A stretch of DNA of 64,000 bases, taken from contig CM000432.1 in the NCBI GenBank assembly GCA_000165345.1, forward strand, positions 480,001-544,000, written 5' to 3'. A model generated the notes under the pieces. The model did no database searches, had not been told where the DNA came from, and worked only from the letters and a program-made list of their open reading frames with translations. Positions 10,068 to 39,007 of this stretch are shown one piece after another (position 1 is the first letter of the stretch; every line of letters begins with the position of its first letter). A program made the translations under genes and the position numbers.

Positions 10068-12249
10068 TTACCTTGAATAAATACTTCTCTTGTTTTTTCT
10101 ATTAAGTTTGTGGATTTTAAGATCATCTTTGTACGCCAGTACAACTGAATCGCTATTATTATAAAAGGTAGAACAATCCTCAACTCTACTTTCAACTTCT
10201 TTAATTGAATAAGAATATAGATTACCTCTTTTTACGGCTTCAAAGTCCCAAACTATAACAAAATTATCTATGCTTGTAACGATTTTAGTTTCCGCCCAAA
10301 ATCCTTCTGGCCCTTGGCATTGGTCAAATCTGGCAGGCGTGAAGTTAACTTCTGTAATTTTGTAATGAAACAAATCTTCGGGCTTTAAACGCAGTTTCCT
10401 GGATGGAGGTTTATTCCTCAGACTTGAAACAAATCCATTTCTACCTTCAGATCCAGAGTTTTCTTCTTGCTCAGTTACTGGATATAAGTGAATACAATTT
10501 TTTGTAGTTGCGAGAATCCAATTACCATTTCTAGTCACATCTACGGATATAATTGGAGACCCAAATGAATTAAGTAGTGTCTTTGCCTTTTTAAATTCTC
10601 CATCTTTGTTCATTGTACCATCATATAATCTTAGCTCTCCTAAGTCGTTGCCAATCAATATATGTCCATCTTTATCAGTTGCCATACTACTAAAAAGAAC
10701 ATTAGACCTATATATCTTTGAAGTAAATCTGTTGGAAGACTCCTTGATCCTACTATCCATTATAAACATTGCGCTGTTACTTAATCCCAAAAACGTTGGA
10801 ACTGGAGTGGATTGAGAATCTTTGCTTGACAGTCCTAAACAAGAAATTGGAAGTCCATTTGCATCCCAACGACGTAAAATTTTTTCATTTGTCAAATCCA
10901 TTTGATAAACATAATTAGGATCTGTTTCCGACAGAAACAACATTTGGGTTTCACAGTTGTGTAGTTGGCCTCCTACAGGAAGTACACTTTGATTTTCGAA
11001 TTCAATATTTTTAATTACAGAAATATTTCTTGCAGGAGTTCCACTAATATTATAATTGCTTCCTTCCGATTCTGTGTTTTTAAATACAGCAATTTCTGAC
11101 TTCCCATTACGCCTATTTGCCCTACCAACAAAAGTATTTTCATGTCCTATTAACATATATTTGTGATTCAAATACAATTCGTTATTTTTTGTTACTCTCC
11201 TAGGAGTTGAATAACATTCATTTTCTACTTCATCAGCTGAACAAGTGTGGTCACTTTCATTATCGCTGCATTCCCACATAATCTGATCTTTGCTGGGATT
11301 ATAGTTATCATCCAGGTCCATTTTATAACTCACTCCATAGTCTGAAACTTCGTTTTTAATGATTTCAGAAATACTTTTTCTTGGCCTTTTTTCTTCCGGA
11401 TTTACTTGATCTATGTGCTCTAAAAGTTTAGCAATAAATCCATCAATTTCTTCCTCTGAGCTATAGAAGGATTTGTTATCTTCGCCTTCATTCTGTATTC
11501 TTTTAAAATGAATTCGATATCTTTTTCTTATTTCGTCCTGATTAAACCCATAAAATTCAACAACTCTTTCACTTAATTTAGGCAAAAAAAGAATGTTATC
11601 CCCAATTATACTGGCAAACAGTACTTCGCCTTTTCCTGATAAATTCTTAATAGAAAAAATTGTGTCTTTGAAGTCTTTACTCGACAAAAGCTCGCAAATA
11701 GCATTTAGGCTTATTGGCTTCCATTCTTCAGCGTTAAAGCTCAAAATAGAATCTCTTTTCTTTTTAGTTATTGTATCATCGTGTTCATACAATTCTATTG
11801 GGATTTGATCTTTTATACTGCAGAGAGAACGAAGAGACAATGTTATATTATACGATAAGAATGAAAGAATATGTAGATCCATATTTTCAAACTCGAAAAC
11901 GAATTTTACCAAATCTTGTCCTGACCTCGTAATAATTATAAATTCACCCTGTTTATTACTATGAAAGTAATGTATATTCTTAAAATTGAATATATAATTT
12001 TCTTTTTGATCATCATTTGGATTTACACCGCTCATGATTATGTCATCTTCAATATTCATGCAGCAGGATTTAAGTACAAGCTGGTATGTCTTTCCGTTAC
12101 ATTTATACAGAGACCCTAAACAATAGTATTTAGTTCGTTTGATACTAGTTTAAACTGTCTAACTTACCATGATAGCTTTTACTAATTTTAGGGGAATCAC
12201 CAGCACTCGCAGAAAATCCAGTAAATATTCTTCGTATTAAACCACTCAT
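10068..12249 (-). CDS. VID27-like protein (PH-like N-terminus plus WD40-like C-terminus). Two exons: 10068..12115 and 12168..12249.
   Basis: Main ORF 10068..12059. Upstream exon ATG 12249..12247 encodes MSGLIRRIFTGFSASAGDSPKISKSYH. Donor G|GTAAGT, 52-nt intron 12116..12167, acceptor TTGTTTAG|GG, reading in frame into ...SLYKCNGKTYQLVLKSCCMNIEDD. C-terminal repeats resemble VID27. Confidence 0.55.
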
Positions 12250-12506
12250 ATGTATTCGTTGTTTTTGGCATTAAATTAATTTTCACTAAGATAATATTTT
12301 ATGCTCCAAGGAGATTAATTATTATTCTATTAACAATTTGCTATAAAATGTACCGAGGGCGGGGATAATTCATGTTTTTTTTAATTAGATCTCTTAGAAG
12401 TTCTCGAAAGTAACTGAAAGTGAATAATTAATTTTTATAAAATGAACTTAATTGGAATAGTTTAAATATTAGAAAAATAATAATTGTTTTGCGGGCAGAA
12501 AAAAAG

Positions 12507-12591
12507 TGCGTAGAATGGGATTCGAACCCATGAGAGCATACGCTCATTAGATCTTGAGTCTAACGCCTTAGACCAACTCGGCCATCCACGC
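12507..12591 (-). tRNA. tRNA-Leu (anticodon CAA), type II, intronless
   Basis: Minus-strand read GCGTGGATGGCCGAGTTGGTCTAAGGCGTTAGACTCAAGATCTAATGAGCGTATGCTCTCATGGGTTCGAATCCCATTCTACGCA. Acceptor stem pairs 7/7 (one G-U). D-arm GCCGAGTTGGTCTAAGGC, anticodon stem TTAGA/TCTAA with loop CTCAAGA, long variable arm, T-loop GGTTCGAATCC. Followed by TTTTTTT, a Pol III terminator, at 12499-12506. Confidence 0.8.
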
Positions 12592-12808
12592 GCCGCTACT
12601 ACCGACCGTTTATTGTAAAATATATTCAATAACAAGAAACTAAAAATCAGCCAAATTGACGAGGGGGCGTCAATAAAAGTAAATAGTGGTTTAAGTGAAG
12701 AAATGAATTAAATTGACCTAGGAGTACTATATACCTGTAATATATGTTAATTTTAGTTACATTTTGAGAAGTGGCAAATAAGGAGCTATTTATTTGGTAA
12801 AAAAAACA

Positions 12809-13329
12809 TTAAATAAAGTCTCCATACCTGCCTCTTAATTGTCTAGCTAATCTTATATCTCTTGGTAGTAATGTAACTCTTTTGGAGTGCAATGTGCATA
12901 AATATGCATCCTCGAATAACCCTTGTAAAAATGCTTCTGCTGCGCATTGAATAGCATGCAAAGCCTCTGCATTCCATCTCCACATTTCGCCATGTGGCAC
13001 AAATTTTAATGTAACCTCTCTAACAACGCGAGCAAAAGGTAGTTTAGCAATAAGTAAATCAGTTGAGGCTTGATATTTTCTAATTTCTCTTAATGCAACC
13101 GTTCCTTAAATAAATATAATTTGAACACAGAATAAATTATTTAGCTTACCTGGTCTTCTTCTATATCTCCTTGGGCTAATGGGGCTACTACTAATTGCTC
13201 TATTATTCGTTGATTGGTGAAGAATAGGAGTCTAGAGAACTAATGAATATGTTGCATAAATGGAATTAATCAACTTACTTTTGACGGATATTTTGCAATT
13301 CGCTTGCTTGAAGTTTTAGAACGAGCCAT
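12809..13329 (-). CDS. Centromeric histone H3 variant (CenH3/CENP-A-like). Three exons: 12809..13104, 13150..13231 and 13279..13329.
   Basis: Exon 1 encodes [17 protein letters not shown] (H3-like tail), donor |GTAAGTTG. Exon 2 ...PRRYRRRPG. Exon 3 [30 protein letters not shown]...[37 protein letters not shown]. Introns are 47 and 45 nt. The histone fold is clearly H3. The divergent tail, 2-aa longer loop 1 ([13 protein letters not shown]) and C-terminal extension are CenH3 hallmarks. The ORF track only saw the last 63 aa. Confidence 0.7.
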
Positions 13330-13693
13330 AATCAATGAACCAATAGAAATTACTATTGAAGCCGTTAAAACAACGACTGCAATAGTAATAATTGTTAATT
13401 ATCAGCTCTAGACTAATTATTTAGTATTACTTGAAATATCTATTTATTAATTCCAGAAAAATATATCGTTTTCCAAATGAAGCCCGTTTCATGCATGAAT
13501 AATATCTTAATTAAACAACCAAAATATTCAAAAAAAATTATTCTTTTTAAGAAAGAAATTAAGTTTAATATCTAATTTTTTTTTATAAAAAAACTTTCAC
13601 ATGTATAAATTTATTTTATATTCTTTGCAAATTATTTGGCTTTGTCGTCTGTCCATCTAGTTAGTATATATTTCTTTTAAATGTGGGTAATGA

Positions 13694-13708
13694 TTTGGCG
13701 CTGGCGGC
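13694..13708. promoter_or_regulatory. Canonical E2F-type site TTTGGCGC followed by TGGCGGC, in the CenH3/ATG5 divergent intergenic region
   Basis: Direct read gatTTGGCGCtggcggcac. GC-rich islet in AT-rich DNA. Matches E2F consensus TTTSGCGC. Confidence 0.4.
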
Positions 13709-13745
13709 ACTGCTGCTTTTTTTTAAGCTTAAACTTCTAACATTT

Positions 13746-14718
13746 ATGTTAAAAATAATAGAAAGCAAATCACATGCTCTTACACACAAGATAATACACT
13801 CTGGCTTGTTGCTTATTTCAATAAGTATTGATCACGGAGAAGAAAGTAAATTCTCAAAGTGGAAATGTGCTCCTAAACTTTACTTTATTATCCCAAGAAT
13901 AGGTTATTTATTATCTTTGATTGACACTATTCAGGACTATTACGCTTCTATTGATAAGGAATTTTATAATTTAATTGAAAACACTTTCTCTTGGTTTGAG
14001 TACGATGGTTTGGTCATAAATAGGTAATTTATTTTTTAATAATTACATTAAATTGTATCCTTTCTAAGCCAATTCCCTGTAGGAATATTATTTGATAAGT
14101 ATCACAAAAGCAATGATAGCGTTTCATTCAACATTAAATTGGTTCTTCAATACAATAATAGTAATAAAAATAATCGGAAAGCTCCTTTTTTTTCTGAAGA
14201 AAACTCAGTATTTAATAATAACTTGATTAAGATTATTACAAATAACATTAAGCTATCTCAAACTGTAATGTTTGGAGATTGCAGAAAACTTCAAATGATG
14301 AATAAGAAAGATTACAATGAACTATTTGATTCTATATACTCTCTCTCCAAGACAACAGGTGAATACGAGAAGATAATTCATCGATTGTTCGGGTCAGCAA
14401 ATGAAATATATTTCAATACTAAGTAAGTTCTTCAGTATTTAAGCTTTAATAATTTAAAAAAAAAAAATTAGGAATATTCCGGTAAAAATTCACGTTAAGA
14501 ACGAATCATTTTTGAGATCATTCAAAAAAGATATTAACAATCAACTAATTGAAATAAAAGATATTCTAAACCATTTCAAATTTGAAACTAATGTGAGCTT
14601 AGATTCAAATAAAGTAATTTTTCATGGGGTCGCACTACCATTAAATACGCCATTAATATTTTTAACAATATTTTGCCCTTATATTGATGGGATTGTTCAA
14701 TTAGTTATTAAAGATTAA
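13746..14718 (+). CDS. ATG5: Autophagy protein ATG5. Three exons: 13746..14023, 14069..14422 and 14472..14718.
   Basis: Three track ORFs (13683.., 14139.., 14512..) are exons of one gene. PKLYFIIPRIGYL...SWFEYDG matches EPYYLLLPRVSYL...IWFEYEG. PVGILFD matches PIGLLFD. KNIPVKIHV matches FRYIPFRIY. VIFHGVALPLNTPL matches VMIHGIEPMLETPL. Donors AG|GTAATT and AA|GTAAGT, introns 45 and 49 nt. Start could instead be 13683. Confidence 0.75.
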
Positions 14719-14723
14719 TAATA

Positions 14724-15099
14724 TTAGCTTCCTATATTAGTGTTTGTAGAATTGTTTTCAGATGCGCCTCTCTGATCAAGCAATACATTATTAGGCATAA
14801 AGTAGATAGACATAAACCCCATAGTTAGGAACCCAATAAGTGTAATCGTTCTCTGGAAATCGCTATTGTTGGAGGTTGTTATACTTGAAAATATCAAGAC
14901 TACTGAAAGAAAGAATAACTGTTTTATCTGGAAAATTGCTGCTGAAAATCCAGTTATCATCCCTCCTATCAAAATCAACTCCGAAAGCAGAGTGGCTTTA
15001 GTTGCTAAAAATCAAGTAAAAATTATTAATCAAACACATTTTTGGCATACCTGATCTCAATATTTTAATGAAAGGTACGGACTTAGAATCATCTATCAT
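14724..15099 (-). CDS. Small 3-TM membrane protein (about 108 aa). Two exons: 14724..15004 and 15051..15099.
   Basis: Exon 1 ATG 15099 encodes MIDDSKSVPFIKILRS. Donor G|GTATGC, 46-nt intron, acceptor TTTTTAG|CA, reading into ...TKATLLSELILIGGMITGFSAAIF... (track ORF 14724..14978). Three hydrophobic helices. Family not recognised. Confidence 0.45.
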
Positions 15100-38556: not shown

Positions 38557-39007
38557 TTTTTTACTTAATATTGAGCCTGAAAAACTTCTAATGATATTAC
38601 TAATGCGGGTAAAGATTAAAAGAAGAATAATAAAAATATTTAAAATGTATAAATAGATGTCAATATGCGCAATAGAGTAAAAGCAACGAGCTCTAAGCAT
38701 TTTCCTATTTGATTGCATATTGTGAATAGCACTGATCATAATTACTATAAAAAAAAATAAGATAAAATATTATTTTTTTCAATATTTACTTTTACGGAGA
38801 AAGAAAATTTGAATAATATGGACTAGAATGACAATATTTATAAAGTAGCAGAGTAATCATTCGATAATAAATCATCTTTTACAATTTTAAATAGTTAAGT
38901 ATTATTTGGAAAATATTGCGCCAAATAATTGTTTATACGATGACTTGAAATAAAAAGAAAGTTTGCAAATAGCATTTTCATTATATTTATAAGACATTAT
39001 AAGTTCT

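Follow-up and report, generated by a model that had tools for sequence, protein, structure and literature searches.

Does the minus strand at positions 12809-13329 of this Cryptosporidium parvum DNA hold a complete histone gene, and if so, a gene for which kind of histone? The window (the whole stretch of DNA that was analyzed, 64 kb with a GC content of 30%) came with a prokaryote-style ORF list, in which the locus is represented by a single GTG-started ORF of 63 amino acids (12809..13000, minus strand). The list cannot extend this ORF upstream because an in-frame TAA lies at the 3' end of what proved to be intron 2. Reading the locus straight from the sequence, we found three exons and two introns, all on the minus strand. 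Exon 1 (13279..13329), which was found by tblastn at 100% identity, has 51 nt, the ATG plus 16 codons, and is followed after codon 17 by intron 1 (13232..13278; 47 nt, GTAAGT...TAG, phase 0). Exon 2 (13150..13231; 82 nt) encodes the variable part of the N-terminal tail. Intron 2 (13105..13149; 45 nt, GTAAGC...AAG, phase 1) interrupts the Gly45 codon (RRRPG/TVAL). Exon 3 (12809..13104; 296 nt including the TAA) encodes the histone fold, with αN, α1, an extended loop 1, α2, and α3, followed by a C-terminal RYGDFI. The spliced coding sequence of 429 nt has an open frame throughout and encodes 142 amino acids. An earlier note on this DNA had described the ORF as only the last 63 codons of a gene that, after removal of two GTAAGT-type introns of 47 and 45 nt, would encode a 142-amino-acid protein with the H3 fold. 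The ORF, the spliced product, and its N-terminal tail, which is exactly as quoted there, agree with that description, as do both intron lengths; the GTAAGT start is correct for intron 1, while intron 2 starts with GTAAGC.

An exact-sequence look-up showed no residue to differ between the 142-amino-acid product and QOY42241.1/WKS77541.1/WRK31784.1, which GenBank names [quoted passage not shown] We conclude, with a probability of roughly 0.94, that the three-exon gene is real and is cgd4_2030, the centromeric H3 variant (CenH3/CENP-A/Cse4 family) of C. parvum.

The C. parvum gene was compared with loci L001 to L004, its orthologues in C. felis, C. ubiquitum, C. bovis, and a gastric species (L004), and for each of them we solved for the GT..AG intron pair with which the annotated protein is reproduced. 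Intron positions and phases (0, then 1) are the same in all five species, and exon 1 has 51 nt and a conserved peptide in each of them. Intron 1 ranges from 47 to 63 nt and intron 2 from 43 to 79 nt, and intron identity to C. parvum is 46 to 76% (56 to 63% for intron 1), versus 73 to 98% for exon 1 and 79 to 87% for exon 3. Exon 2 is the most divergent coding part, with 57 to 91% nucleotide identity between species. In exon 3, the changes at codon positions 3, 1, and 2 number 44, 3, and 0 against C. felis (no amino acid change), 35, 3, and 0 against C. ubiquitum (no amino acid change), and 44, 3, and 0 against C. bovis (one amino acid change); the gastric species differs by nine amino acids. 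With changes biased toward third positions and, in the first three comparisons, zero or one amino acid altered, exon 3 bears the mark of a coding exon on which purifying selection is strong. A reading of the locus as a pseudogene is ruled out by this third-position substitution pattern.

CenH3 proteins are usually noted for rapid evolution, and the conservation of the fold is unusually strict for a member of this family. Among C. parvum, C. felis, and C. ubiquitum, none of the 97 amino acids of the histone fold differ, with 36 to 45% of third positions changed.

The spliced protein matches the Pfam histone family (PF00125, 1.8e-35), and a PDB search gave 176 H3-family matches with a best value of 5.5e-37. 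The best of these are engineered H3 chains carrying the CENP-A targeting domain (5z23, 7by0, and 7bxt; about 130 bits), and the next is Schizosaccharomyces pombe Cnp1, with 118.7 bits over a shorter alignment, ahead of all H3.1 and H3.3 chains (at most 118 bits). In a search of 5.8 billion proteins, the top match was "centromere protein A" from C. felis (93% identity, 142 amino acids, full coverage), followed by C. serpentis (75%), and below these two there was a mixture of CenH3 and H3 proteins. All the orthologues are labeled CENP-A or Cse4-like by their sources. A fungal origin, such as Pneumocystis, which the short GTAAGT introns and the AT-richness had first suggested, was discarded, since the database matches point to Cryptosporidium. 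No second H3-fold locus was found when the window was searched by tblastn.

Loss of the H3-invariant residues Q68, F84, and T107 is a criterion by which CenH3 proteins are recognized. At the equivalent positions, the C. parvum protein has A, W, and A (PFARV, WRWNAEA, and FEDAY). Among the 131 sequences retrieved, every one with an ARTKQTARKS tail has Q at α1 (PFQR) and T after FED, and the matches named CenH3 have A or S at position 68 and A, T, C, G, or S at position 107. The N-terminal tail contains neither an ARTKQTARKS nor an ARKSAP motif, and the exon 2 that encodes it is the part varying most between species. The span from PF in α1 to FED in α2 covers 39 residues in the C. parvum protein, as many as in the Cse4 reference sequence and one more than in that of human CENP-A (38); canonical H3 has 36, the value seen in human H3.1 and H3.3 and in 18 of the 22 H3-tailed matches. 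Across the L1/α2 region equivalent to the CENP-A targeting domain (CATD), 25 of 43 residues are identical to CENP-A versus 17 of 43 to H3.1, the CATD sequence being taken from the PDB alignment. The features of canonical H3/H3.3, namely, an ARTKQTARKS...ARKSAP tail, Q68/F84/T107, and a short loop 1, are absent. The earlier note had taken a noncanonical tail, an extended loop 1, and a C-terminal extension as hallmarks of CenH3, and the tail motifs, the A/W/A residues, loop 1, and the CATD identity back this assignment. Two of its measurements needed correction: loop 1 is indeed extended, by three residues over H3 (span of 39 versus 36) and not by two, and the C terminus is longer than that of H3 by three residues (RGRYGDFI versus RGERA) and not by a five-residue YGDFI add-on.

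A CenH3 gene is a handle for finding the centromeres of an organism, and in Cryptosporidium it has been used in this way. According to a preprint (Kimball et al., bioRxiv 10.1101/2025.09.30.679541), the canonical C. parvum H3 genes are cgd3_2540 and cgd4_3220, and cgd4_2030, annotated as CENH3, is confirmed as such by BLASTP and a tree. Kimball et al. tagged the protein at either end and observed nuclear, diffuse staining through mitosis. By CUT&RUN, they mapped small CENH3 windows to all eight chromosomes, 347 of them coding and 58 intergenic, with a signal that is GA-rich, correlated with H3K9me3, and anticorrelated with H3K4me3, and they read this dispersed binding as holocentric-like. The preprint thus already contains the equivalent of the ChIP-seq with a tagged protein that had been suggested for mapping the centromeres. 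The description of the gene product as the key centromere-defining protein needs qualification: the published signal is spread diffusely over hundreds of small binding windows, and no chromosome shows one regional centromere, so that the centromere-defining role rests on the interpretation given in this one preprint. The gene, its three-exon structure, its identity as a CenH3, and the map of its chromosomal binding had all been made public before. The case is mainly a method check, in which a spliced gene hidden from the ORF track was rebuilt from raw sequence and equals the current annotation residue for residue.

From what is known of the family, CenH3 would replace H3 in a subset of nucleosomes. 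By analogy, the extended loop 1 and α2, which are equivalent to the CATD, may direct its chaperone-dependent deposition, and the CenH3 nucleosome, including the hydrophobic C-terminal ...GDFI, may recruit kinetochore proteins.

The gene order of ATG5 (divergent), CenH3, tRNA-Leu, and VID27 is kept in all species examined. ATG5 (13746..14718, plus strand; 292 amino acids) has three exons (13746-14023, 14069-14422, and 14472-14718), separated by introns of 45 nt (14024-14068, GTAATT..AAG) and 49 nt (14423-14471, GTAAGT..TAG), and its product matches ATG5_UblA (1.8e-12) and ATG5_UblB (6.2e-7) in Pfam. Gene model and Pfam matches together substantiate the head-to-head arrangement with CenH3 that had been noticed earlier. 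ATG5 is equally hidden from the ORF list, where it appears as three separate ORF fragments. A tRNA-Leu(CAA) gene (12506..12591, minus strand) follows CenH3 on its strand, at a distance of 218 nt from the stop codon, and is syntenic in five of five species. VID27 (10068..12059, minus strand), also downstream and syntenic, is an intronless ORF of 663 amino acids with the VID27 C-terminal WD40-like domain (Pfam, 2.2e-55). On the other side of ATG5, a small ORF for a hydrophobic peptide of 84 amino acids (14724..15099, minus strand) ends 5 nt from the ATG5 stop. As the two are convergent and nearly abutting, their 3' UTRs must overlap. Called genes of 94 to 116 amino acids occupy the position of this small ORF in C. 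ubiquitum and the gastric species.

The 416 nt between the CenH3 ATG and the ATG5 ATG (13330..13745; 25% GC) are presumed to be a bidirectional promoter. An E2F-like site, TTTGGCGC followed by TGGCGG, matches the TTTSGCGC consensus at 13694..13701 on the plus strand, so the site reported by the earlier note between the two genes is present, and it is conserved. E2F/DP, whose genes are present in C. parvum, is kept in Cryptosporidium, unlike in other Apicomplexa. On sequence grounds, the site is plausibly functional, but it is generic, and it is nearer to ATG5 than to CenH3. That it has nothing to do with CenH3, being either a chance match or a core promoter element of ATG5 only, is an explanation to which we give slightly less than an even chance. 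The count of the motif fits this explanation: the window contains two TTTSGCGC sites where 1.05 are expected, and at least two also turn up in 27 of 100 shuffles, so the number is not above chance. The position fits as well: the site lies upstream of both start codons, at a distance of 45 nt for ATG5 and 365 nt for CenH3. In addition, the site, with GGCGCT, departs slightly from the palindromic core [C/G]GCGC[G/C] defined for C. parvum (PMC3734150); among the five species, only C. bovis has GGCGCC. Finally, no upstream motif is more abundant in C. parvum than the E2F-like one, which precedes about 2,379 genes and is tied to no particular pattern of expression (PMC3734150). Against chance, however, stands the finding that a GGCGC/GCGCC core lies 38 to 59 nt from the ATG5 ATG in five of five species, even in the barely alignable region of the gastric species, and is the sole such core in each intergenic region. 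Since these regions have only 24 to 29% GC, the retention of the core in all of them is not a chance event. Against a role in ATG5 only, E2F motifs dominate the C. parvum ATAC-seq peaks, and over half of these peaks carry the annotation of a bidirectional promoter, which makes a role common to CenH3 and ATG5 plausible. The sole other exact TTTGGCGC in the window is at 38918..38925 on the minus strand.

The E2F-like site is part of a conserved noncoding block (13621..13710). In the alignment, C. parvum, C. felis, C. ubiquitum, and C. bovis have almost the same sequence there, and its conservation exceeds that of synonymous sites in the neighboring CenH3 exon. In minus-strand reading, the block also holds ATTACCCACATTTA, and it reads CCGCCAGCGCCAAATCATTACCCACATTTA ... 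TAACTAGATGGACAGACGACAAAGCCAAATAATTTGCAAAG. We considered several identities for it. A repeat or common motif is ruled out, as a 24-mer taken from it has no second copy in the window, even with three mismatches allowed. A search of positions 12000 to 15000 against Rfam with a permissive threshold gave only the tRNA-Leu and sub-threshold chance matches, none of them in the block; one of the rejected matches was snoR77Y, on the opposite strand at intron 1/exon 1, with 22.5 bits versus a gathering score of 52. We likewise rejected a conserved RNA fold for the block (-1.26 kcal/mol, six pairs, no covariation), which makes DNA-level promoter elements more likely. An upstream ORF on the CenH3 strand (MDRRQSQIICKEYKINLYM) keeps neither its length nor its peptide sequence across species in the alignment and was discarded. 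The block is probably a cluster of promoter elements, consisting of the E2F-like site, a G-box-like TGTGGGT, and a 20-mer.

CenH3 is probably transcribed from the 416-nt divergent promoter common with ATG5, which bears the genus-conserved E2F-like element. One may go further than the published work and speculate that, in a lineage with reportedly holocentric-like CenH3 binding, CenH3 has escaped the centromere-drive arms race, and that its expression is that of a generic S-phase histone driven by E2F. Such a reading is suggested by the invariant fold (0 of 97 amino acids, with about 40% third-position divergence) together with the conserved E2F-containing promoter block common with ATG5; the data are compatible with it, and we consider it improbable.

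A very unlikely reading is that the protein is a noncentromeric H3 variant, of a replacement or stage-specific kind, instead of a CenH3. Its N-terminal tail, at 44 amino acids, is as long as that of H3 and opens with MARSK, close to the MARTK of H3. The extreme conservation of the fold within the genus is what one would sooner expect of H3 than of rapidly evolving CenH3 proteins, the published staining is diffuse over the nucleus, and the PDB scores of H3.3 (about 113 to 118 bits) are only a little under those of the CENP-A chimeras. Such a variant is hard to reconcile, however, with the replacement of all three of Q68, F84, and T107, the three additional residues in loop 1, the greater closeness of the CATD-equivalent region to CENP-A, and the CENP-A or Cse4-like names carried by all orthologues. 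Two further genes in the genome encode canonical H3, and the CUT&RUN signal shows a positive correlation with H3K9me3 and a negative one with H3K4me3.

We also built a neighbor-joining tree (Kimura distance, 500 bootstraps, about 100 columns). The Cryptosporidium proteins form one clade in 500 of 500 bootstraps, their exclusive grouping with canonical-like H3 occurs in just 2 of 500, and the nearest neighbor of the clade is "CSE4" of the apicomplexan Cardiosporidium. The backbone of the tree is weak, as expected with only about 100 columns; the canonical-like group itself reaches 82 of 500, partly because of atypical H3-like sequences in the match list. The phylogeny, a check that had been proposed, places the protein outside canonical H3, in agreement with the published tree, in which cgd4_2030 is with the CenH3 proteins.

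The support for the intron junctions of CenH3 comes from cross-species comparison and published annotation. The original Iowa II entry of 2004 (EAK87944.1/XP_625797.1, "cse4 like, partial") has 98 amino acids, corresponding to exon 3 alone, and the 2015 Iowa II re-annotation (CUV05584.1) likewise has a partial product of 98 amino acids. Exons 1 and 2 were all that this old annotation lacked, and later annotations fixed that. CenH3 has 141 or 142 amino acids in 10 independent annotations, and orthologues of this length are found in C. hominis, C. meleagridis, C. canis, C. ubiquitum, C. bovis, C. xiaoi, C. ryanae, and the chipmunk genotype. The IOWA-ATCC re-annotation, which holds QOY42241.1 (= CPATCC_001863), claims RNA-seq support for 100% of introns (PMC8744675). 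We regard as the least probable alternative, and dismiss, a product of exon 3 only or one with another start or other junctions: it agrees with the two partial entries, and the junctions do rest on comparison and annotation, but the 98-amino-acid product would have neither a start codon nor an N-terminal tail, exons 1 and 3 have 51 and 296 nt in five species with canonical GT..AG at all junctions, the encoded N-terminal peptide ...KYPSK is conserved while intron lengths drift by non-multiples of 3, and the ten annotations and the RNA-seq claim are on the side of the three-exon gene.

Compared with known systems, the three-exon CenH3 of C. parvum has the same fold as canonical H3/H3.3, a like length (142 versus 136 amino acids), and 57.6% identity over the fold; it differs by having no ARTKQTARKS tail, no Q68/F84/T107, and a loop 1 longer by three residues. 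Saccharomyces cerevisiae Cse4 has an equal loop 1 span (39) and a similar hydrophobic C-terminal end (QFI versus DFI in C. parvum), but its N-terminal tail is about 130 amino acids long versus 44. S. pombe Cnp1 is the best natural PDB match to the C. parvum protein (118.7 bits). Human CENP-A and the CATD chimeras 5z23, 7by0, and 7bxt share with it the H3-type fold, the extended loop 1, Trp at F84, and Ala-Tyr after FED, and human CENP-A is further alike in 25 of 43 residues across L1/α2 and in a C-terminal tail that exceeds that of H3 by three amino acids. In contrast to human CENP-A, the C. parvum protein has a loop 1 longer by one residue, an unrelated tail, and an αN that is H3-like, whereas that of CENP-A is divergent. 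With C. parvum CENH3, cgd4_2030 (QOY42241.1/CPATCC_001863; older partial entry, XP_625797.1), there is no difference; the two are the identical 142-amino-acid protein.
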